The notes beneath the pieces were generated by a model that was not told the origin of the DNA, did no database searches, and was given only the letters and a program-made list of their open reading frames with translations. A program made the translations under genes and the position numbers. From assembly GCA_964607415.1 (NCBI GenBank), contig CAZSKK010000002.1, positions 288,585 to 352,584 of the forward strand: DNA of 64,000 bases. Reading direction: 5' to 3'. The stretch's first letter is position 1. Each line of letters opens with the position of its first letter. Source of the stretch: an uncultured Candidatus Saccharibacteria bacterium (GTDB taxonomy: Bacteria; Patescibacteriota; Dojkabacteria; J137). Positions 36,729 to 49,886 of the stretch are shown here, piece by piece.

Positions 36729-39700
36729 TTAACTAAACGGATTTTGCATAGTCCTCACTTTTACAAGTTCCGCTAAAGATGATTTTTTTACTTCTACCTT
36801 CTTCATTGCGATATCTTTTGATATATAGCCCCTTTCGGTAACAGTTATATTATTAGAATCCGATTCAGATACATCTGACATTACATAACCTTCTTTATTT
36901 GCAAGACACCAATATATACCTTTTCTTAATCTGATCTTCATTCTACCTTGTGCGTTTGTTAGATAAACACCAACCTGCTTGGCATCTCTATAAAATCTTA
37001 CACTTACACCAGGTAGTCCTTTTTCTGTATCTAAATCAATAACTCTACCTAATCTGCTTAAAATCAAACTTGTAGCCAGTTGCAAAAAGTTAATTATAAA
37101 AAGACCAAAGTATGCAATTATTATCAAGCTGTTTATAACATTTGGGAAAAGTGTAAACACATAAACACTATAGAAAAATCCAATCAACATTAATGCTGTA
37201 AGAATAACTCTAACCGTTTTTATTACCTCAGCTTTGTAATAAAATCTAAGTTTATTTATCAAATTTGGTTTTTTCCCAACTGGAGTTAAAGCAATATCTT
37301 CCAAAAATTCAACACTTTTACCTACTTTCTGGATATCAAACTTCTTACTAAATAATTCATATCCCTGTGCTTTAACTTCCACAGTATACGTGCCGGATTT
37401 CTCTAGAAGAATTCCATATTTACCTTCCTCATCAGAAATTACTCTAGTGATCATTTCTTTATCTTTAAAGACAGTAATATAGGCAAAAGGAATAGGTTTG
37501 TATTTGTTAACATCGAATATGAACCCCCAATATTTTTTCTTTTTTGGAATTAATATTCCATAAAGGATTCCTAGTCTTGAACTAACTTCTCTTAAGGCAA
37601 ATGGTGTGCCACCTGCAAAACTTAGAGTGTAGATAATTGTAAATGCAGTTAAAACGGCACCAAGACCGGCAGGAATTAGAGCATTTATGTCAGTTCTATA
37701 TCTAAGATCAACAAAATCAAGATTTAAAATTTCTTTCACCTCGCCTTTTTCATTTCTTGCAATTAACTGTAACTGTGTGTCTTTGTCTATATAAATTTCT
37801 GCTGAACCATCTAATGCAAGATTTTCTCCTATCCCTATAATATCAACGGAAGTTGCATTTTCTGTTTCCCAGATTACTCTATACAAAGCTCTAGTATTAG
37901 TTTCCGATAATTTTTCTGCTTCAAATTTAACAATTACTACATCTTCCACTATTTCACTTGTCAACTCGACAGGTTCTTCGTAAACCTCAACTGTTAATGT
38001 TGATCTCAAATTACCATAAGGGCCTTCTCCATCCAGATAAAAAGTAGTAGTTTTTTCTAAAGTTAATTTGGTTTCACCATTAGTTGTAACAGCCCCATAA
38101 TCTTTGTCGTCTGACCGTAGTCTTAAGATATTAAGGTTTGAAGATGTCCAACTTAATGAAAACTCTTCACCTTTTAGAACTTTATATTTATCAGATTTAA
38201 ATACTAACGAAGGAATTACGGTTATGTTGTTATTATCGATGGTGCCAATAAAGTTTATTGGCTGAGATACAGCACTACCTTCGTCGTTATAAGCACGAAG
38301 ATAATAGGTTCCCAAAACATTTGCTGTTGCGTTGGTAATTATTGCCTGACCATTAATAATTTCAGCGTTTGTTACATTAAATCCTGGAACAACTTGATTG
38401 TCAGATAATCTTCTTAGTTCAATATTGACTGGTTGACTACCTTCAACTGGGTTGTTCAAAAGATCCAAGGCATTTACAGCAAAACTAAAATTATTCCCAA
38501 CCAAAACGGTTTCTGGTTCGTTAGCTATATCCATAGAAAACCCTCTATCGGTATCGTTTAGGTAAGCAGAGTAGGAGAAACTTATATTTCCTATGACAGG
38601 AGTTGAACCTTTAGTCATAGTCACTCTAAATTTAATACGGTAGTCTTTTGTAGGAAAGTTTACAGTGCTACCAACAGCAACAGGATACCATGTTAAGCCT
38701 CCATCATTGGATACTTCATATGAAATACCCCCTGCATTAATTAATGTTTCTACGCTATCGAGAGTGATAAAGTCTGCATCTAACCTTCCTTCGATTTGAG
38801 CATCAATTTCACTACTTGCAATACCAGAAGCTGCAAAATCTCTATTTAAATTGTAATCATATACACCATGCCTTGCTAAAACTGCTCTTAAAGATCCATA
38901 TCCAGTCATGTAAAAGTCTCCAATCTCAGCAGGGTAAAGATCATTATTAATATTTAGATTTAAGATTTGATCATCAAATCTATCAGTATATGTATCGTTT
39001 ATAGAAAGGTAAATCATTCTTCCTGATACAGTCGAAATGAAGAATTGACTTCCAACAGGATATTGACCAGGTAAGTACTCCATATCTGTTCCAAAGTCAT
39101 TTACATCTTCATAGGTTGCCAATACTGTAATAGTATCATCGGCCAAGTCAAAAGTACCTTGATCGTTAGTAATGGCCTCAACTCCTCCAGGATAAGAATA
39201 AACAATATTATTGTTTTTATCCTTCACAAATGTTGAAACCATGTTTTTGCCTGGTCTAATGGTTACAGAATTATCACCAAGGTTTACAGGTGTAGCGTTA
39301 TCGTTTATTTTATATATGCCAGCTTGAAAATCTCCAAACCATACAGTATTTGTTGCTTCATCAAGGTAAAGTCCTGTAGGAATAGGTAATAAACCGCTAC
39401 AAGAACCGCTTGAACAAGAGTATGTGAAGCCAAATCCATAGGTCATTGTTTCATCATCTGCTGAGGTTGTAAAATCTCCTGGTCTAACATATCCGATTCC
39501 TGCTCCATGTGTAAAATAAACCCCGTAGTTAGGGAGACTTCTTTTGTCAATCTGAAGCATGTAAGTTTCATAATAAGACTCGCCATTGTAAATTACATAG
39601 GAGTCGTAGCCATCAGTGATACTAGTTCCAAAGTTGATCCCTAGCAATCCGGTACCTGCAGCAACCCAAACGTGATATTCACCATTTACATAAATTTCTT

Positions 39701-42611
39701 CAATTTCACTAATTTTTGCATTTTGAAAGAACACAACAGGGAATCCAGAGAAATCATAAGCACCGAATGTAGTTTCTATTCCCGTTCCAATATTATAATA
39801 GCTAAAATTATCTTCATCTTTAGTTACCCAAAAGCCGTTCGAACTACTTTGAAAAATCTTGTTTTTAACAGCATATCCACCATATTGTGGTGCAAATCCT
39901 CCTGTTAAAACAGTTGTTCTTGAAGGATTCATAGCTTCTTTTAGTCTTAATACTCCATTTCCCCAGATCAAGTCAGAAGATACTATATCATGATCATCAT
40001 GATTATCGAATGATTCTGTTTTTACAATATTTATTGCATTTTGATTAGGATCTTGAGCTACAATTTCAAATGTAATAGTTTGATTCTTGCTTTGGGTATT
40101 TGTATCATTGCCAGAATTATCTACAGCTCTTACTTCAGCAGTATGTGCCCCCAAACTCAAGCCTTCCAAAGGTAATGAGAATAACTCTTCAGTACTGTTA
40201 TTAGAGCCATCTAATGGAGGCATTGTTAACCAAGATCCACCGTCAATTCTATAGTAAATGGTTTGAATATTTGATGTTTTCTGACCAGGATCGTCTTTCA
40301 CTTTTCCTTGTAAAGGAGGGTCTTGGTCAGTAGTAGGATCTGGAATTATTGATTGAAGCTGAATATTGGGAGCTAAAGTATCAACGCTATCTATTACTAT
40401 TCTGTCTATTGTTTGGCCTTCCCCAAGAAGTGATGATGCTCCAGTAAAAGCACCAAGAATATTGCCCACTGAGTCAATAGTTCTAACTAATATTTGCTTG
40501 TTACCATCTGCTAAAAGAGTAGTTATGGAGAAGCTAAAGTCTTCTGTAGGTTCGTCAAAAGCTCCATCAATTGGTGTTGTATTAGTCCAATCGTTTTCAA
40601 AACCACTGCCTTCAGCAAAAATTCTGTATTGTACATTGGCTATGTTTACATCGGTTTCAACAGCTGTTCCGTTATAGTTAAGTGTTGGGGTTACGGTCAT
40701 ATCAATCGGTGTTTGTCCCAGTGTTGTAACGCTTTGGATAGTTGGAGCCACTGCGTCAATTATTCCAGTAAAAGGGTAATCTTGAGTTAAATTTACAGAG
40801 TTGGTAACAGTGATAACTATATCGTAAGTTGCTCCATCAGTAAGCATATTCCCATGGTCATCAAAGGTTAAGGTAAAGTCTTCGTTATTGGAATCAAAGA
40901 AAAGGTCATTTGCTGAAGCAGTAATTGGTGATTGAACTGCTTGATTGGGATTAGTAACTGAAAAAGTTGCAGTAACATTGCTTATTGTTGATTCCGGATC
41001 AGACGCAGTACCAGTGAATATCATTCTATTTCCTCCTATACCAGAGTAGCTTTGGGTAAAAGTTATACTAGCAGGTGTACTATCTGGTGCCGGACCGGTA
41101 AGAGTACCCAATAAAGATAGATCATCAATTGTAAAACCTCCAGTAGCTGTTGTGCTTACAGCTTGTCCCTCTGCATCAAAGTGAAATCGAACCTGAAAAG
41201 TACTGGTTGGAGGCGTTGCACCAAGCAAAGAATCAATATCAATTGTTGCAGCAACGTACGTACCAAGAATTGAATTTGTTCGAAGATTATATGCTTCAAT
41301 CCATTCACTAGTGTTTGATGCCCTTATGAATACTCTGTTAAGGTCTCCAAGTGCTGGATTATCATGGTGCCACATATATTGAAATTGAAGTTCAAGATCT
41401 GTAGCGGTTTGATAATTACTCAAGTCTCTAGTTAGTACTAAATCTGTCTGTGCACCCCCACCATCAACTGAATCCAAGGTTGCAGCTCCATTACCGGCAA
41501 ATTGAAAACCTCCTCCCTGTAATCTTAATCGACCATAACTTATTGTTATATCCCATTCAGATCCAATTGTGTCAGTCATGGGACCTTGTTGTACACCTTG
41601 GTCTATCGTTGTTCCAACTCCATCTTCAAATTGTTCCTGGTAAATTGTATGTTGTCCGCCTGGTATATTTATAGAATACTCAGCTACAGGCCAATAATTA
41701 CTATTTTGATCAACTGCCCTCAAATAAAAAGTATGCACACCTGGAATTCCCGCTACTGTTCCAGTTGCTGCAGAACCATCAGGTTGAATTGATAGATCTG
41801 AAGGACTGAACCAACTTCCATTGTCAAAATTGTATTCTAATGAAAGAATTTGTAGCTCCGTGACATTAGTAGATGCTCCGCTAACAGAAATATACGATCC
41901 ATTGTCAATTGCATTAACTGTAATTTCGGCTCCTCCACAATCCATAGTTCCGTTAATAGTATCGGAAACATAAGAATTACCAGGTGATTCTAGGTTAAAT
42001 TGATCGAAGGCTCGTGCTTCAATAGTGTGTGCACCGCAAGCTAGAGTATTTGCATAAACTCTTGCAGCCACAAAATCAGTTCCGTAATTTCCAAATTCTT
42101 CGGGAGCAAGTGTCCAGTCCCCTCCATCAATTCTATACTCAAGTGCCTGTACATACTCTGGTCCTGAGTTATCTTCAGTTGCTTGAACAACAACACCGTC
42201 CTGATCAGGGATTAGAATAACTGTTAAGTAGTTGGGTCTTGTTAATTGAACCATTAAATCACCTACTGGCCATGTATCTGTGTTTATATCGACAGCTCTA
42301 AAGTAAATATTATTTGTTCCTGGAGGTAGATCATTGTAGTAAAAATTTGCAACTACAAGGGTGTCAACTCCGTATGTTCCTTGACTTGCGGGGATTTGTA
42401 TCCAGTTTGCTTGATCGGTACTCCATTCAATAGAAGTGATTATTAATGCACCTGCAGAATCTGCATAAAGTTCGTAGTAGTTTATTGCATCTGTGCCACT
42501 AAGGGTAACTTCGGCAGAAGCAGTAATAAACTCTTTGGCAATTACTAGTGTACCGAACCAAGCTAGCACTATAAAGGGAATTAGTAGGGCGTATAAATAT
42601 TTTGATCTCAT
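36729..42611 (-). CDS. giant (1960 aa) cell-surface protein: N-terminal signal anchor, ~1500-aa beta-rich ectodomain, C-terminal TM helices interleaved with two CarboxypepD_reg-like domains
   Basis: N-terminal hydrophobic segment; T/S/N/G/D-rich repetitive beta-strand segments; C-terminus has at least 4 TM helices plus ITVFKDKEMITRVISDEEGKYGILLEKSGTYTVEVKAQGYELF and VSVRFYRDAKQVGVYLTNAQGRMKIRLRKGIYWCLANKEGYVM (carboxypeptidase-regulatory-like fold). Confidence 0.8.
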   Translation of the reverse strand: MRSKYLYALLIPFIVLAWFGTLVIAKEFITASAEVTLSGTDAINYYELYADSAGALIITSIEWSTDQANWIQIPASQGTYGVDTLVVANFYYNDLPPGTNNIYFRAVDINTDTWPVGDLMVQLTRPNYLTVILIPDQDGVVVQATEDNSGPEYVQALEYRIDGGDWTLAPEEFGNYGTDFVAARVYANTLACGAHTIEARAFDQFNLESPGNSYVSDTINGTMDCGGAEITVNAIDNGSYISVSGASTNVTELQILSLEYNFDNGSWFSPSDLSIQPDGSAATGTVAGIPGVHTFYLRAVDQNSNYWPVAEYSINIPGGQHTIYQEQFEDGVGTTIDQGVQQGPMTDTIGSEWDITISYGRLRLQGGGFQFAGNGAATLDSVDGGGAQTDLVLTRDLSNYQTATDLELQFQYMWHHDNPALGDLNRVFIRASNTSEWIEAYNLRTNSILGTYVAATIDIDSLLGATPPTSTFQVRFHFDAEGQAVSTTATGGFTIDDLSLLGTLTGPAPDSTPASITFTQSYSGIGGNRMIFTGTASDPESTISNVTATFSVTNPNQAVQSPITASANDLFFDSNNEDFTLTFDDHGNMLTDGATYDIVITVTNSVNLTQDYPFTGIIDAVAPTIQSVTTLGQTPIDMTVTPTLNYNGTAVETDVNIANVQYRIFAEGSGFENDWTNTTPIDGAFDEPTEDFSFSITTLLADGNKQILVRTIDSVGNILGAFTGASSLLGEGQTIDRIVIDSVDTLAPNIQLQSIIPDPTTDQDPPLQGKVKDDPGQKTSNIQTIYYRIDGGSWLTMPPLDGSNNSTEELFSLPLEGLSLGAHTAEVRAVDNSGNDTNTQSKNQTITFEIVAQDPNQNAINIVKTESFDNHDDHDIVSSDLIWGNGVLRLKEAMNPSRTTVLTGGFAPQYGGYAVKNKIFQSSSNGFWVTKDEDNFSYYNIGTGIETTFGAYDFSGFPVVFFQNAKISEIEEIYVNGEYHVWVAAGTGLLGINFGTSITDGYDSYVIYNGESYYETYMLQIDKRSLPNYGVYFTHGAGIGYVRPGDFTTSADDETMTYGFGFTYSCSSGSCSGLLPIPTGLYLDEATNTVWFGDFQAGIYKINDNATPVNLGDNSVTIRPGKNMVSTFVKDKNNNIVYSYPGGVEAITNDQGTFDLADDTITVLATYEDVNDFGTDMEYLPGQYPVGSQFFISTVSGRMIYLSINDTYTDRFDDQILNLNINNDLYPAEIGDFYMTGYGSLRAVLARHGVYDYNLNRDFAASGIASSEIDAQIEGRLDADFITLDSVETLINAGGISYEVSNDGGLTWYPVAVGSTVNFPTKDYRIKFRVTMTKGSTPVIGNISFSYSAYLNDTDRGFSMDIANEPETVLVGNNFSFAVNALDLLNNPVEGSQPVNIELRRLSDNQVVPGFNVTNAEIINGQAIITNATANVLGTYYLRAYNDEGSAVSQPINFIGTIDNNNITVIPSLVFKSDKYKVLKGEEFSLSWTSSNLNILRLRSDDKDYGAVTTNGETKLTLEKTTTFYLDGEGPYGNLRSTLTVEVYEEPVELTSEIVEDVVIVKFEAEKLSETNTRALYRVIWETENATSVDIIGIGENLALDGSAEIYIDKDTQLQLIARNEKGEVKEILNLDFVDLRYRTDINALIPAGLGAVLTAFTIIYTLSFAGGTPFALREVSSRLGILYGILIPKKKKYWGFIFDVNKYKPIPFAYITVFKDKEMITRVISDEEGKYGILLEKSGTYTVEVKAQGYELFSKKFDIQKVGKSVEFLEDIALTPVGKKPNLINKLRFYYKAEVIKTVRVILTALMLIGFFYSVYVFTLFPNVINSLIIIAYFGLFIINFLQLATSLILSRLGRVIDLDTEKGLPGVSVRFYRDAKQVGVYLTNAQGRMKIRLRKGIYWCLANKEGYVMSDVSESDSNNITVTERGYISKDIAMKKVEVKKSSLAELVKVRTMQNPFS

Positions 42612-42697: not shown

Positions 42698-43618
42698 TCA
42701 TGACTTATCTTCTAACCATTTTTGAGCTGACAGGGCTGCCATGCAACCTAAACCCGCTGCGGTAATAGCCTGCCTGTACTTTTCATCTTCAACATCTCCA
42801 CATGCAAACACCCCTTCGACATTAGTTTTAACATGATCAACTGCAGTTATATACCCCCTTTCGCTGGTTGAAATACTGTTTTTAAGAAATCCAGTAACTG
42901 GGATGTGGCCAATTGCCAAAAATAGCCCATCTACCTTTAGCTCAAATTCTTCATTTTTTACGTTATTAAATAACTTAACTCGATCAACCTTATCTTCTCC
43001 CAAAACTTCTTTTACCTCAGTATTCCAAATAATTTCAATTTTAGGATTATTTAAAGCCCTTTCTTGCATTATTTTGCTTGCCTTAAATTCGTTTTTTCTA
43101 TGTATGATATAAACCTTTGAAGCAAATCTTGTTAGGAATGAAGATTCCTCCATAGCAGAGTCGCCACCTCCAATAACGGCTACTGTTTTATCTCTGTAAA
43201 AAGCAGCATCGCATGTTGCGCATGTTGAAACACCTTTCCCATAAAATTTATCTTCTCCTGGAATTTCAAGTTTTCTTGGCGTTGCTCCTGTTGCAATAAT
43301 TACTGCTTTGGATCTAAATTCTTCACTTGAAGTTTTTACAATTTTTTCTTTACCTGAAAGATCAACAAAAGTTGCGTCATCATATTTAAATTCTGCGCCA
43401 AACTTTTGTGCTTGTTTTAGCATTTTGTCCATAAGTTCCGGACCCTGGATTCCTTCTGGAAAACCTGGAAAATTTTCTACTTCAGTTGTATTCATTAATT
43501 GTCCTCCCCAAATTACGCCAGTAATAACTAAAGTTTTAATACGTGCTCGCGAAGCATAAATTGCTGCAGTTAAGCCAGCTGGTCCTGAACCAATGATAAT
43601 TAGATCAAACATATTCAT
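42698..43618 (-). CDS. trxB: thioredoxin-disulfide reductase
   Basis: FAD GxGxxG (IIGSGPAGLTAA), redox-active CATCDAAF, NADPH site VIGGGDSA. Confidence 0.9.
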   Translation of the reverse strand: MNMFDLIIIGSGPAGLTAAIYASRARIKTLVITGVIWGGQLMNTTEVENFPGFPEGIQGPELMDKMLKQAQKFGAEFKYDDATFVDLSGKEKIVKTSSEEFRSKAVIIATGATPRKLEIPGEDKFYGKGVSTCATCDAAFYRDKTVAVIGGGDSAMEESSFLTRFASKVYIIHRKNEFKASKIMQERALNNPKIEIIWNTEVKEVLGEDKVDRVKLFNNVKNEEFELKVDGLFLAIGHIPVTGFLKNSISTSERGYITAVDHVKTNVEGVFACGDVEDEKYRQAITAAGLGCMAALSAQKWLEDKS

Positions 43619-43698: not shown

Positions 43699-44019
43699 TT
43701 ATTTATCAAGGTTTCTATTCAAAAAATCCATATAGATCATTTTGTTTGCCGCACCTGTTATTCTATCAACTGGTTTACCATCTTTGAAGAGAATAAGAGT
43801 AGGAATTCCTTGAATGCCGTAAAGACCAGCAATTTCAGGATCGTGGTCTGTATCAAGCTTTCCAATTTTTACTTTACCATCCATTTCTTTTGCAATATCT
43901 TCGATTATAGGAGCAATCATTTTGCAAGGTGTGCACCATTCAGCCCAAAAATCTACAAATGTAAATCCAGACTGTATTTCAGCATTGAAGTTATCCTTAT
44001 TTAGGTGAACAAGAGCCAT
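43699..44019 (-). CDS. trxA: thioredoxin
   Basis: WAEWCTPCK active site, 106 aa. Confidence 0.9.
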   Translation of the reverse strand: MALVHLNKDNFNAEIQSGFTFVDFWAEWCTPCKMIAPIIEDIAKEMDGKVKIGKLDTDHDPEIAGLYGIQGIPTLILFKDGKPVDRITGAANKMIYMDFLNRNLDK

Positions 44020-44174
44020 AAAATTGTATTAAAAATTAAAAGTGTAAAGTAAAACTATGATTAAAGATTCAAGAACTATGATAATGAACAATTTAAATAA
44101 TTTACAATTTTCATAGCTCAAAATCCTCAGCAGATTTGGAAATTTTTCAAATTATAAATTGAAAATTACAAGCA

Positions 44175-44435
44175 TTAGCTTACTTTAAAAAATCCATTAA
44201 CCAACTCTTCAAACTTTTTCATCTTTTTATCTTTGCTTTTTTGTTTAAAACATTCTTCACATTCTTCTCGTAGAGCGTCAGTTGCGAGTCTTGCGAGGGC
44301 AGAGCGTACTGCTGAAATTTGTTGAGAAATGCTAACAGCATCTCTTTTTTCTTCTACCATTCGTTCAACACCTTCGAGCTGTCCTTTGATTCTTTTTATT
44401 TGGATTTTAATATCAACGCAATTGTCTTTTTGCAT
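44175..44435 (-). CDS. CsoR/RcnR/FrmR-family (DUF156) sensing transcriptional repressor, atypical ligand set
   Basis: KRIKGQLEGVERMVEEKRDAVSISQQISAVRSALARLA family core; start at MQKDNCVD (ATG 44433-44435) because the 12-codon extension overlaps the operator; canonical X-position Cys replaced by Ala, C-terminal CEEC. Confidence 0.65.
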   Translation of the reverse strand: MQKDNCVDIKIQIKRIKGQLEGVERMVEEKRDAVSISQQISAVRSALARLATDALREECEECFKQKSKDKKMKKFEELVNGFFKVS

Positions 44436-44448
44436 TCCAAAATGATAA

Positions 44449-44465
44449 TATACTCCCAGGGGGTA
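44449..44465. promoter_or_regulatory. CsoR-type operator: inverted repeat ATACTCCC-AG-GGGGTAT 14 nt upstream of the regulator start
   Basis: GC-rich interrupted palindrome resembling known CsoR/RcnR sites (TACCC-N-GGGTA with G/C tract), immediately upstream of the DUF156 gene. Confidence 0.5.
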
Positions 44466-44471
44466 TGTCAA

Positions 44472-44834
44472 CTAGAAATTTAAAATTTGGTTCTCGTCAG
44501 GATTTTCTTTGTTTATTTTGATTTTTAGTTCATCGCCAACTAAATATTTTTGCTCCAATTTATTAACAAATTCCTGGTCTTTAGTATCAGTTTCAGAATA
44601 ACTTGATGTGTAGTTAAGGTTTTTATAATTATATTTGTATCTCAAATCTATAGTGTACAAAATATTATTTGATTCGGCAGGTGCTTTAAAAACAGTATAT
44701 TTAGTAATCTCGGCATCAATTTTTTTCCATTTATTGCTAGGTAGTAAATTCAAGGCGATAACAATAATCAACAGCAAAATCAGTACAATTAGAATTGGAA
44801 TAAAATATTGCTTCCTATATGTTAGTTTATTCAT
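44472..44834 (-). CDS. hypothetical membrane-anchored protein
   Basis: 120 aa, single N-terminal TM helix. Confidence 0.35.
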   Translation of the reverse strand: MNKLTYRKQYFIPILIVLILLLIIVIALNLLPSNKWKKIDAEITKYTVFKAPAESNNILYTIDLRYKYNYKNLNYTSSYSETDTKDQEFVNKLEQKYLVGDELKIKINKENPDENQILNF

Positions 44835-44841
44835 AGACTAA

Positions 44842-46083
44842 TTATACAAGATCATTTAATTGTTTTTGAGGAAGATGAATTTTTTTGGGAGTTATAATTA
44901 ATAAAAATATAGATATTATAAGGCAAATTGCACCTATAGCTCCAAATGTATGTTCATATCCGATTCTATCAGAAAGAAATCCGGTTACTAAAGGACCAAT
45001 AATGTATGAAAACGAAATGGTCATCCGTGCAATGCTAAGTAAAAGCATTTCGGCTTCTTTGGATCTCTTGGAAAGGTCGCTGTAAACTGCTTCGTTAAGT
45101 GGAAATGCAAACCCCACAAAAAATGCCGAAATCGTAATAATTATATAAATCATAGGTTCTGACGGGTTAAGAAAGAAGGAGGTTAATAAAAGTGACGCAA
45201 TTAAGACACTTATTTGTGAAATAAATTTTTTTCTTGTTTTAATTTTTAACCTAATGGTTAAAGATTCACCTAGAAGCATCGCGCAGCTATTTAGAACTAT
45301 TATTAACCAAGCAGTATTTTCTGATAAGCTTACCCCAAATAAGGCACCTATAGTCCAATAAGTTGATGTAATCAAGCTTACACAAAATCCTAAAAAAACT
45401 ATTGGGTAAATTTTTTCTCCAAGTATTTCTATTATTTTCACTTCTTTTACAATCTTAAAAAAGTATTTCACTTCAGAAGTTTCTTTTATGATACTTTTGT
45501 TTTTGGGGCTTTTTAGAATTAGACTTGCCAAACTAAGAGCCAGTATTTGAATACCAATAACGACAACAGCCAATTTATTTTCGGATTCCTTAAGTAAATA
45601 AGCTCCTAGTATTGGAGCAATTATCATTGTTAAATCCCAACCAGATGACAAAATTCCCCATGCTTTAGAAAATTCATTTTTGGGTTCTTCGGTTACAACA
45701 AAATCTTGTTGCGAAAAACCAATAAATTCAAAGTATATTCCCCAAACGATACTTGCGAATGTAAACAGTATTAAAGGATAGTGGTTGCTTGCCAAATGAG
45801 TTAATAAAGGAAAAAGTGTTGCCAAAGCAATTCCAGTAACTAACATCGGCTTCCAAGATCTGCTTTTAAATATTTGAGGAATTATTAGATCCATTACAAT
45901 CCCAGCTACAGAAGAAAATGCCATTATAATCCCCATTTGAGTATTAGAATTAAGCTTCTGCTCTGCAAGTACTGGAAAAACATAAGCCATTATCCCGTCT
46001 GCCAATAAAATTAAAAAAACAGGAATAACGAACCTACTAAGTTTACTTTTAGAAATATAATTGTTTTTGTATCTAGCTCTCAT
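44842..46083 (-). CDS. MFS-type transporter (12 TM)
   Basis: Start at MRARYKNNY (ATG 46081-46083); 12 hydrophobic helices with a central loop; N-terminal 42 codons of the longer ORF are unsupported. Confidence 0.5.
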   Translation of the reverse strand: MRARYKNNYISKSKLSRFVIPVFLILLADGIMAYVFPVLAEQKLNSNTQMGIIMAFSSVAGIVMDLIIPQIFKSRSWKPMLVTGIALATLFPLLTHLASNHYPLILFTFASIVWGIYFEFIGFSQQDFVVTEEPKNEFSKAWGILSSGWDLTMIIAPILGAYLLKESENKLAVVVIGIQILALSLASLILKSPKNKSIIKETSEVKYFFKIVKEVKIIEILGEKIYPIVFLGFCVSLITSTYWTIGALFGVSLSENTAWLIIVLNSCAMLLGESLTIRLKIKTRKKFISQISVLIASLLLTSFFLNPSEPMIYIIITISAFFVGFAFPLNEAVYSDLSKRSKEAEMLLLSIARMTISFSYIIGPLVTGFLSDRIGYEHTFGAIGAICLIISIFLLIITPKKIHLPQKQLNDLV

Positions 46084-46241
46084 AATCAATACTAAGTTAT
46101 CATATTTGTAATTGTATTGGAACTGGGAGCTAATAGTATTAGAATGAGTGTAACGTTCTTTTACAGAATAATAAATACAAATTTTTAATTTACAAGTATC
46201 AATTTTCAAATCAGGCTTTTGAAAATTCTTTAAATTGTAAA

Positions 46242-48502: not shown

Positions 48503-48793
48503 TTATAAACTAAGAATTATTAAAAGTGCAAAGCCTATACAAATAAGTCCATAAATCCAGGCAAATTTAGCTCCAACTTCTACAAACTCTCTTCTTTTTA
48601 CAAATTTTTTTGTAAAAATTACAACAAGGCCTTCTAATACAAACCAGATAGATATAATTACACCTAGTAGTTTTTCTATTTGACGATCTTCAGAAAGTTT
48701 TATTATAAGCACAGAAACAGGAACGACGATTAAAAGCCCTAATAACACAATAAGGTGAGCTAGTTGTGATTTACTTAGATTTTTCATAAACAC
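48503..48793 (-). CDS. small hypothetical membrane protein
   Basis: 96 aa, 3 TM helices; overlaps the tsaC-tsaE start by 23 nt. Confidence 0.3.
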   Translation of the reverse strand: MFMKNLSKSQLAHLIVLLGLLIVVPVSVLIIKLSEDRQIEKLLGVIISIWFVLEGLVVIFTKKFVKRREFVEVGAKFAWIYGLICIGFALLIILSL

Positions 48794-49886
48794 TAATTTT
48801 TCTAGAGTTCTCAGAAAGGACTTTTAATTTTACAATATAAATCTTTGTTTTTTCAAACTTAAAATCCAAAGCACTCATTACTGAAGGCCATTCTATTGAA
48901 ACAATATTATCTTTTTTAAGATAGCTTTTTAGATTTAAAGTTTCTAAATCTTGTTTTGATTTAATCCTCCAGGCATCTATATGAATTAGTTTACCTTCAT
49001 GATATTTCACTGAATAATTATATTCATTTAAATAAATGTAGGTTGGAGATTTAATAATCCGATCTATTTCCAAAAATTTTCCAAAACCTTTTGTAACTTG
49101 TGTTTTGCCGGCTCCAAGTTCACCATCTAAAAGAATAATTATTGGATTAGATGATTTATTAAGATTGATAATTTCTGATAAAATTTCACTTCCAGCTTGA
49201 ATTGTTTGCTCAGCTGAACTTGTTGTAAATTCAGCGATTTTATTTAAACCTTCTCTATCATTAGAGTTTACATGAGCTTTATTGCCAAGCATTATGTTAC
49301 CATGGCGGTAGGCGGTTAACTCATCAGTGGTAGTATCTATTACAGTAGATGGTGGGTTATGTGGAAGCTGACTTGCATCAATAATCAATCCAATCATTTT
49401 TCTTTGTTTTTCTGAAATATTTTGCAAAATATCTTCAATGTTATAAGGTGTTTTTTTGCCTGCAGAATTTGCAGATGTTGATGTGACCGGTTTTTTGAAT
49501 TTATTCAAAAGCTTTAGTATAAAATCATAATCTGGAATTCTTATACCCAATGTTCCTTTTTCGGATTCAAGTCTTTTATCAACCAAATTTTTTGATTTTG
49601 AAATTATGGTTACTGGCCCTGGAAGAAAATTTGAATAAATGTTTTTTGCAGTATCGTTAATTTCTACGATAGTTTCCGCCATATCTTTATTTGCGACTGC
49701 AACACTAATTGCTTTACCTTCGGGTCTTTTTTTATATTTTAGAACTTTTGTAACAGCATTCGAGTTAGTTGCATCTACGCCAACGCCATAACAGGTCTCC
49801 GTTGGATAAATTACAATTTCACCATTATTTAAATACTCAATTGCTTTGTTAATAGCTTTTGGATTTTTAATATCAACTATTTCCAT
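48771..49886 (-). CDS. Fusion: L-threonylcarbamoyladenylate synthase (TsaC/YrdC/Sua5) N-terminal domain plus TsaE (YjeE) P-loop ATPase C-terminal domain, t6A37 tRNA modification
   Basis: YrdC-fold motifs (IVIYPTETCYGVGVDA, KKRPEGKAISV, TSTSANSAGK) followed by TsaE Walker A IILLDGELGAGKTQVTKGF and C-terminal TsaE pattern. Confidence 0.75.
   Translation of the reverse strand: MEIVDIKNPKAINKAIEYLNNGEIVIYPTETCYGVGVDATNSNAVTKVLKYKKRPEGKAISVAVANKDMAETIVEINDTAKNIYSNFLPGPVTIISKSKNLVDKRLESEKGTLGIRIPDYDFILKLLNKFKKPVTSTSANSAGKKTPYNIEDILQNISEKQRKMIGLIIDASQLPHNPPSTVIDTTTDELTAYRHGNIMLGNKAHVNSNDREGLNKIAEFTTSSAEQTIQAGSEILSEIINLNKSSNPIIILLDGELGAGKTQVTKGFGKFLEIDRIIKSPTYIYLNEYNYSVKYHEGKLIHIDAWRIKSKQDLETLNLKSYLKKDNIVSIEWPSVMSALDFKFEKTKIYIVKLKVLSENSRKISVYEKSK

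Follow-up and report, generated by a model that had tools for sequence, protein, structure and literature searches.

A CsoR/RcnR-family regulator with an altered cysteine site, its own operator and adjoining thioredoxin genes: a candidate thiol-based redox repressor of Patescibacteria

What does a CsoR-like protein sense, and what does it control, when residues that define the known members of its family are missing and the genes downstream of it encode a thioredoxin system? This question is raised by a 64,000-nucleotide (nt) stretch of a contig from an uncultured Candidatus Saccharibacteria bacterium of the Dojkabacteria lineage (the whole stretch is hereafter the window), in which a minus-strand gene for a protein of 86 amino acids (aa), located at 44175..44435, is followed by trxA and trxB. 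Both downstream genes, which a preliminary description made from the sequence alone had placed on the same strand as the regulator, score above the cut-offs of their family models: trxA (43699..44019, minus strand) encodes a thioredoxin of 106 aa with a WCTPC active site (PF00085, E=3e-29; TIGR01068, 114 bits against a cut-off of 96.8), and trxB (42698..43618, minus strand) encodes a low-molecular-weight thioredoxin reductase of 306 aa (TIGR01292, 417 bits against a cut-off of 343). These two genes are the proposed targets. The best explanation overall, and one that we consider probable, is that the regulator acts as a thiol-based redox repressor, controlling its own expression together with that of trxA and trxB in a single csoR-like-trxA-trxB operon. 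The combination of a repressor, an operator and a link to the thioredoxin genes is put forward with high confidence; the signal and its chemistry are argued below with correspondingly more reserve.

The assignment of the predicted protein to the CsoR/RcnR superfamily is secure, because it draws on a Pfam match, an AlphaFold2 model and the Foldseek matches of that model. Residues 9-79 match PF02583 (Trns_repr_metal, formerly DUF156) with E=9.4e-19 and 68 bits, where the gathering cut-off is 22.8 bits. The model, computed with 51 relatives in the input, has a mean predicted local distance difference test score of 84 and forms helices at residues 5-28, 33-63 and 68-85, which is the three-helix protomer (an alpha1-alpha2 hairpin plus alpha3) characteristic of the superfamily. 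Foldseek pairs it with InrS, CstR, CsoR and FrmR at template modelling scores of 0.62-0.88; the top matches, InrS, CstR and CsoR, reach 0.72-0.88, InrS being the best at 0.88, and the best sequence match in the PDB is Streptococcus pneumoniae CstR (E=8e-9). No NCBIfam equivalog cut-off is reached by the protein, with the RicR, FrmR and RcnR models all far below theirs; FrmR, the second-best match, scores 38 bits (cut-off 133) and RcnR 28.5 bits (cut-off 138). The protein reads MQKDNCVDIK...FFKVS from end to end, and the same ATG is chosen as its start in independent gene calls on 20-odd public contigs.

To which functional group of the superfamily does the protein belong? The ligand positions, conventionally W, X, Y and Z, were read from pairwise HMMER alignments to S. 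pneumoniae CstR, Geobacillus CsoR, Mycobacterium tuberculosis CsoR and InrS, and the alignments to these solved family members run without gaps through helix 2. Ala33 (codon 44337-44339; this and the following codons were verified and are on the minus strand) lies under the X cysteine of CsoR and CstR, Glu58 (44262-44264) under the Y histidine, which is Asn in CstR, and Cys62 (44250-44252) under the Z cysteine. The protein has two extra cysteines, Cys6 (44418-44420) and Cys59 (44259-44261), of which Cys59 occupies position Y+1 and so stands outside the W-X-Y-Z set. In the AlphaFold2 model helix 1 has Cys6 as its second residue, which, counted back from the conserved KGQ motif, corresponds to Lys8 of Escherichia coli FrmR. 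The fingerprint is thus C-A-E-C and differs from the x-C-H-C set of a standard Cu-CsoR. Much of the preliminary description holds up against these alignments: the DUF156 fold core, the replacement of the X cysteine by alanine, and the presence of Cys6 and a C-terminal CEEC. Its reading of CEEC as the ligand spacing of RcnR and FrmR does not, as Cys59 and Cys62 are i/i+3 apart while the Y and Z ligands of the family are i/i+4 apart, and of the two cysteines Cys62 alone coincides with a ligand.

A family-wide analysis found Cys at position X in all characterised superfamily clusters (PMC8643695). The Cu(I)-CsoR set consists of Cys, His and Cys at X, Y and Z respectively, where the window protein has Ala33, Glu58 and Cys62. 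The RcnR/InrS set requires His3 at W, Cys at X, His at Y and His or Cys at Z; the window protein starts MQKDNC, without a histidine, and has Ala at X and Glu at Y. In FrmR, Pro2 and Cys35 are joined by a methylene bridge and both are needed for formaldehyde sensing (PMC5146963); here the corresponding residues are Gln at position 2 and Ala at X. CstR is defined by x-C-x-C, with the X cysteine as the attacking residue (PMC8643695), and of the X and Z cysteines the window protein has only that at Z. A standard Cu-CsoR, RcnR, FrmR or CstR identity was therefore rejected on the ligand fingerprint, and because at least one tested defining residue fails in each case, the protein is, judged by its aligned residues, outside the CsoR (Cu), RcnR/InrS, FrmR and CstR functional groups.

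The link between this type of regulator and thioredoxin was examined across 136 related loci drawn from GTDB genomes, metagenomes and exact-protein look-ups. A word-indexed protein search returned only the protein itself and one orthologue, and it was an exhaustive representative search that showed the clade. At each locus the regulator open reading frame (ORF) was found with a hidden Markov model, its fingerprint was taken from an hmmalign alignment, and thioredoxin and thioredoxin reductase were identified by phmmer; a locus was counted as informative if its contig held enough downstream DNA to judge the presence of trx, and the scored distances from regulator to trx ranged from a few to 124 nt. 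Regulators with Glu (in one case Asp) at Y and Cys at Z have trx immediately downstream on the same strand at all 24 of 24 informative loci. The corresponding count is 1 of 92 for x-C-H-C regulators, 0/6 for x-C-H-H, 0/2 for x-C-Y-C and 0/1 for x-C-N-C. Fisher's exact test of the first class against x-C-H-C gives p ~1e-24, or ~1e-21 with duplicates collapsed, although the loci are phylogenetically linked and these values therefore overstate the number of independent events, which counts against too strong a reading of the association. The window locus has the features of the first class, with Glu58, Cys62 and trxA-trxB downstream. Named sources of the class are almost entirely members of the candidate phyla radiation (CPR), or Patescibacteria (Dojkabacteria and Saccharibacteria), and on the evidence of gene order the clade is to all appearances dedicated to the thioredoxin system.

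Within the clade the position of trxA is kept in all relatives, and synteny of trxB is also conserved. In the relatives mostly 5-60 nt separate the regulator from trx, with both genes on one strand, and the genes are therefore expected to be co-transcribed. The adjacency also persists despite changes in flanking genes and, in locus L070, an inverted trxB-trx order. In three lineages the gene that follows trx encodes an enzyme that can generate NADPH, namely glucose-6-phosphate dehydrogenase in L065 and malic enzyme in the other two, L069 and L070. Malic enzyme directly follows the trx/trxB genes at both of the latter loci (L069, 4381-5243; L070, 4131-5258), whose regulators are of the x-C-E-C type, and this hints that NADPH supply may be part of the same unit as trx and trxB there. 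The single exception among the 92 x-C-H-C loci is L043 (3980-4222), from a source labelled 'Patescibacteria group', where a thioredoxin gene begins 6 nt downstream of the regulator and the operator reads ACACCCCCTGGGGGTGT. The active site of TrxA is WCTPC in L017, as in the window, and the common form WCGPC in L015 and L016.

By what DNA site would such a regulator act? The predicted operator, ATACCCCCTGGGAGTAT, is a 17-base pair (bp) pseudo-palindrome on the minus strand at 44450..44466 with one arm mismatch; read on the plus strand the repeat is ATACTCCCAGGGGGTAT, and it lies exactly 14 nt from the ATG. It fits both the type-2 CsoR operator consensus ATATACCCCTNAGGGGTATAT and the TAC-X9-GTA motif established for Streptomyces lividans CsoR (PMC3902906), and it has the general superfamily trait of an inverted repeat of G/C tracts flanked by TAC and GTA at a promoter. 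That promoter is predicted at 44442..44471 (minus strand), with a -35 hexamer TTGACA (44466-44471), an 18-nt spacer and a -10 hexamer TATCAT (44442-44447), an 11/12 match and the best of the region. The operator starts on the last base of the perfect -35 hexamer and fills the spacer up to the -10 hexamer, and its TAC-N9-GTA core (44451-44465) lies between the two. Allowing 2 mismatches, the operator is single-copy in the 64-kb window, which has a GC content of ~33%; 0.06 copies are expected by chance and 6/100 shuffles gave a match. Because the regulator ATG lies only 6 nt past the -10 hexamer and has no Shine-Dalgarno sequence, the mRNA of the regulator is probably leaderless.

This arrangement is not peculiar to the window. 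An orthologue of 86% identity, represented by loci L001-L008, has an operator that is perfectly palindromic, ATACCCCC-A-GGGGGTAT, and relatives that share the operator and promoter layout span 40-86% identity. Those at 40-55% identity, from metagenome-assembled genomes labelled Saccharibacteria, Dojkabacteria or 'Patescibacteria group', have TTGACA, a 17-18 nt spacer containing (AT)ACCCC(C)-N1-3-(G)GGGGT(AT), a -10 hexamer, 5-6 nt and the start codon in that order. The promoter and leaderless geometry is present in 13/16 related loci, and the operator motif occurs once per related locus, always in front of the regulator. A start codon 5-7 nt after the -10 hexamer, without a Shine-Dalgarno sequence, is found in L001, L015-L017, L022, L026, L059, L061, L063, L067, L069 and L070 as well as in the window (44433-44471), and this suggests that a leaderless mRNA for the regulator is conserved across CPR lineages. 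At two loci, L065 and L068, the G-tract operator gives way to another palindrome, TATACT-NN-AGTATA.

The preliminary description had proposed a CsoR-like operator 14 nt upstream of the start, and both the repeat and its distance proved correct; the repeat is likewise retained in orthologous and distant loci, whose lack of it had been named as evidence against the proposal. The operator itself is not unusual: at Veillonella and Erysipelothrix loci the motif is also present in front of ordinary CsoR genes of the x-C-H-C type, and the predicted site is therefore canonical for the family and not atypical. Further copies, suggested in front of the trx genes or a nearby transporter gene of the major facilitator superfamily (MFS), did not turn up: relaxed patterns found no second operator before trxA, before the MFS gene or elsewhere in the 64 kb. 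Of the suggestion that a thiol, redox or metal sensor controls the Trx system, the link to trx is upheld by the 24/24 against 1/92 loci of the survey, while the nature of the sensed signal is a matter of inference.

Together these observations lead to a model in which a repressor of the CsoR/RcnR fold would occupy one type-2 operator inside its own sigma-70-type promoter and so block RNA polymerase, the promoter otherwise driving a probably leaderless transcript through the regulator into trxA and trxB. The reduced protein would be the repressing form. Cys62 would become oxidised or otherwise modified, helped by the invariant Glu58, and the modified Cys62 would be resolved by a second cysteine, Cys6 in the N-terminal turn of helix 1, with the lineage-specific Cys59 close by. 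Thiol oxidation would then release the repressor, levels of thioredoxin and its reductase would rise, and the Trx system would re-reduce the repressor, closing a homeostatic loop. Thiol oxidation is slightly more likely than not to be the signal; the specific pairing of Cys6 with Cys62 or Cys59, and the resetting of the switch by thioredoxin, are proposed far more tentatively. Non-metal, thiol-based sensing has a precedent in the family in CstR (PMC8643695). A role for Cys6 is structurally plausible, as it aligns to the Pro2-Lys8 arm of FrmR, which is mobile when FrmR is unmodified and delivers the W ligand (PMC5146963), and covalent capture by that arm may, by analogy, be regarded as having a precedent in FrmR.

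How the sensory site might have arisen can be read from the fingerprints of 263 collected relatives. The x-C-E-C type, in which the X cysteine is kept, accounts for 70 of them; about 20 are C-x-E-C, the type of the window gene, with A, S, Y, P, V or E at X; about 15 are x-S-E-C, proteins of 77-78 aa in which the Z cysteine is the sole cysteine, one of them named 'candidate division WS6'; and 5 are C-C-E-C, in which the X cysteine and the N-terminal cysteine occur together. Among Y=Glu/Z=Cys proteins, a cysteine exactly 12 or 16 residues before the glycine of KGQ is found in 20/41 that lack the X cysteine and in 2/74 that have it, compared with 0/130 of the other family members with Cys at X. 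All 10 of 10 full-length close relatives have the N-terminal cysteine, and Glu58 and Cys62 are invariant. Cys59 is replaced by Ser, Ala or Thr in most relatives, and the CxxC that it forms recurs only in the window lineage, L015 and P0013. In a rough neighbour-joining tree, C-x-E-C forms one clade and x-S-E-C another, both nested among x-C-E-C, with weak support because the protein is short. On the simplest reading of these counts, the Z cysteine and the Y glutamate would be the indispensable pair, and the partner cysteine would have been lost from X at least twice, once with replacement by a cysteine of the N-terminal arm and once without replacement. The single-cysteine x-S-E-C regulators are those of L065/L066 (P0170), L071 and L074-L076; at L065/L066 the regulator is followed by trx and then by glucose-6-phosphate dehydrogenase.

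Several points weigh against the proposed redox repressor or against parts of it. An estimate of helical register puts Cys6 ~1.5 turns from Cys62, and the N-terminal arm would have to move for the two to meet. The x-S-E-C sister clade has one cysteine only, and an intra- or inter-subunit disulfide is therefore not essential to the mechanism of the clade. In CstR the X cysteine is the attacking residue (PMC8643695), and since it is absent here the chemistry must differ. Furthermore, trxA in the window is preceded by a long spacer (44020..44174, 155 nt, minus strand) that is strongly conserved, being 90% identical in the orthologous locus, where the third codon positions of the regulator agree at only 54%, and that contains a promoter-like site, TTGTAA-18-TATCAT (44078-44107). 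Because of this spacer, the regulated promoter may account for no more than part of trxA and trxB expression. In favour of an operon, no minus-strand terminator was found between regulator and trxA. No Rfam match was found in the 155-nt spacer, and its folding is only weakly better than that of shuffled sequences (hairpin z = -1.7). The relatives have 5-60 nt where the window has this spacer.

Of the alternatives, the one that survives best, while still being unlikely, is a CstR-type sensor of persulfides or other reactive sulfur species that induces thioredoxin to reduce protein persulfides, as distinct from a sensor of general oxidant or disulfide stress. CstR is the best PDB match by sequence (E=8e-9), CstRs are dithiol proteins that do without the Y histidine (x-C-x-C), and thioredoxin-like proteins of Staphylococcus aureus are reported to reduce protein persulfides (PMC6196236). 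Against this, the cysteine that serves as attacking nucleophile in CstR is the very one missing here. The neighbourhood has no gene for a rhodanese, persulfide dioxygenase, CoA-persulfide reductase, SQR or TauE, and no sulfide or sulfite detoxification genes lie within ~5 kb of the regulator in the window or in relatives. The NADPH-supply genes of sister loci point instead to a general demand for reductant.

Sensing of a thiophilic metal (Cu(I), or Zn, Cd or Ni), with Cys6, Cys59, Cys62 and perhaps Glu58 forming a rebuilt CsoR/RcnR metal site that draws on the N-terminal arm as in RcnR, is quite improbable. The idea draws on the predominance of metal sensors in the family, on the three cysteines that could cluster in the window protein, CxxC among them, and on the ligand supplied by the N-terminal arm in RcnR, InrS and FrmR. 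It is hard to square with the Glu that replaces the Y histidine, a residue on which every characterised metal sensor of the family depends, with the Ser, Ala or Thr found at position 59 in most relatives, and with a sister clade that has a single cysteine. Nor do the neighbours suggest metal resistance: no copA, copZ, rcnA or other metal-efflux gene adjoins any of the ~20 clade loci, which have trx, trxB, glucose-6-phosphate dehydrogenase or malic enzyme instead, and in the window the neighbours are the genes for an MFS transporter and a DUF3592 protein, trxA, trxB and SIMPL, with neither copA nor copZ.

A plain autoregulator without signal input is also conceivable, as is an adjacency to trx that is merely inherited synteny, with trxA and trxB transcribed from a promoter in their own spacer. 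The promoter-like site and strong conservation of the 155-nt spacer fit this view, as does the lack of a second operator before trxA. The view sits poorly with an adjacency maintained across regulators that are 30-45% identical, with different flanking genes and, in L070, inverted trxB-trx; the gaps of 5-25 nt in most lineages are too short for independent promoters; and a protein blind to any signal would hardly be expected to keep Cys62, Glu58 and the N-terminal cysteine so strictly. We therefore give it little chance. An FrmR-like sensor of aldehydes or other electrophiles, with the N-terminal arm crosslinked to the Y/Z site, can be set aside as very improbable. In its favour, FrmR is the second-best NCBIfam match, at a sub-threshold score, and lends the precedent of an arm used in covalent sensing; against it, the protein lacks both Pro2 and Cys35 (it starts M-Q-K and has Ala at X) and no frmA- or frmB-like gene lies nearby.

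Other genes around the regulator place the window among its relatives. Upstream, at 44472-46209 (minus strand), are the genes for an MFS transporter (455 aa) and a DUF3592-like membrane protein of small size (120 aa), ending 0-1 nt before the -35 hexamer of the regulator, and the order MFS-regulator-trxA-trxB recurs in L016, L017 and L059. Directly downstream of trxB is a giant ORF of 1960 aa (36729-42611, minus strand) with weak CarboxypepD_reg matches, which has a 2638-aa counterpart at the same position in the Dojkabacteria loci L061 and L063. An ORF of 371 aa (48771-49886, minus strand) fuses Sua5/YrdC and TsaE, both of the t6A tRNA-modification pathway, and the same fusion is found near the L061 locus. 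Synteny of the window thus matches that of L061 and L063, with a Sua5-TsaE fusion nearby, the regulator, trxA, trxB and a giant CarboxypepD_reg protein, and by these features the genome is judged to belong to CPR/Patescibacteria and to be probably Dojkabacteria-like.

How does the proposed redox repressor compare with systems already described? CstR of S. aureus, Enterococcus faecalis and S. pneumoniae (clusters 3, 4 and 10 of a sequence similarity network, PMC8643695) has the same fold and the closest sequence, and shares the Z cysteine, a TAC/GTA operator with GC tracts and, if the proposal is right, non-metal sensing by cysteine without a Y histidine. It differs in that its X cysteine attacks, where the window protein has Ala and a new cysteine in the N-terminal arm, in the Asn 'wedge' at Y, where the window protein has an invariant Glu, and in a regulon of sulfide and sulfite detoxification genes as opposed to trxA-trxB. 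The Cu(I)-CsoRs of M. tuberculosis, Bacillus subtilis and S. lividans (x-C-H-C) belong to the same Pfam family and have the same three-helix fold, and share the autoregulatory placement of the operator at their own promoter, the window site fitting the S. lividans type-2 consensus and TAC-X9-GTA form; in the window protein two of the three Cu ligands are gone (Cys to Ala at X, His to Glu at Y), and copA and copZ are not among the neighbours. Like RcnR, InrS and FrmR it would make functional use of a residue in the N-terminal arm that precedes helix 1, a role proposed for Cys6, although W is here a cysteine five residues further in than His3 or Pro2, and the X cysteine and Y histidine are absent. 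The RcnR operator is of type 1 (TACT-G6-N-AGTA), whereas that of the window is of type 2. Spx, the RsrA-SigR-TrxBA loop and OhrR are thiol-switch regulators to which the window protein bears a functional analogy only. As with Spx and RsrA-SigR, oxidation of a cysteine would raise trxA and trxB and thioredoxin would re-reduce the sensor, and as in OhrR there would be 2-Cys and 1-Cys variants, here within one clade; in contrast to the window protein, all three have unrelated folds and modes of binding DNA or RNA polymerase. By these comparisons the regulator probably comes closest in mechanism to CstR for its thiol chemistry and to RcnR and FrmR for its N-terminal arm, with an output like that of Spx or the RsrA-SigR-Trx loop.

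Literature searches that combined CsoR or FrmR with thioredoxin, disulfide stress, Saccharibacteria, Patescibacteria or CPR returned no account of trx genes controlled by a CsoR-family protein, nor of such a CPR clade. The 2021 family-wide similarity network of Fakhoury et al. (PMC8643695) gives only fingerprints with Cys at X for its characterised clusters, and leaves clusters 6-9 uncharacterised, to one of which the Y=Glu clade might belong. A broader proposal, which we make with some hesitation and judge a little short of an even chance, is that the Y=Glu/Z=Cys proteins may constitute a new functional class of the superfamily, dedicated in CPR to the redox homeostasis of the thioredoxin/NADPH system. 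In such a class the centre of sensing would have shifted from the X cysteine to the Z cysteine and Y glutamate, the position of the partner cysteine could vary (at X, N-terminal or absent), giving OhrR-like 2-Cys and 1-Cys variants, and the switch would be reset by thioredoxin.

If this is correct, the clade would add a fifth class of input and output to the CsoR/RcnR family and would provide a natural experiment on the rewiring of a sensory site, with thioredoxin under control in place of metal efflux or sulfur detoxification. To our knowledge, almost nothing is known of transcriptional regulation or of the control of oxidative stress in CPR/Patescibacteria, organisms that are reduced and mostly uncultured. 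The locus offers a predicted CPR regulator together with its operator, its apparently leaderless promoter and its regulon, and an 86-aa protein and a 17-bp site make these predictions testable.

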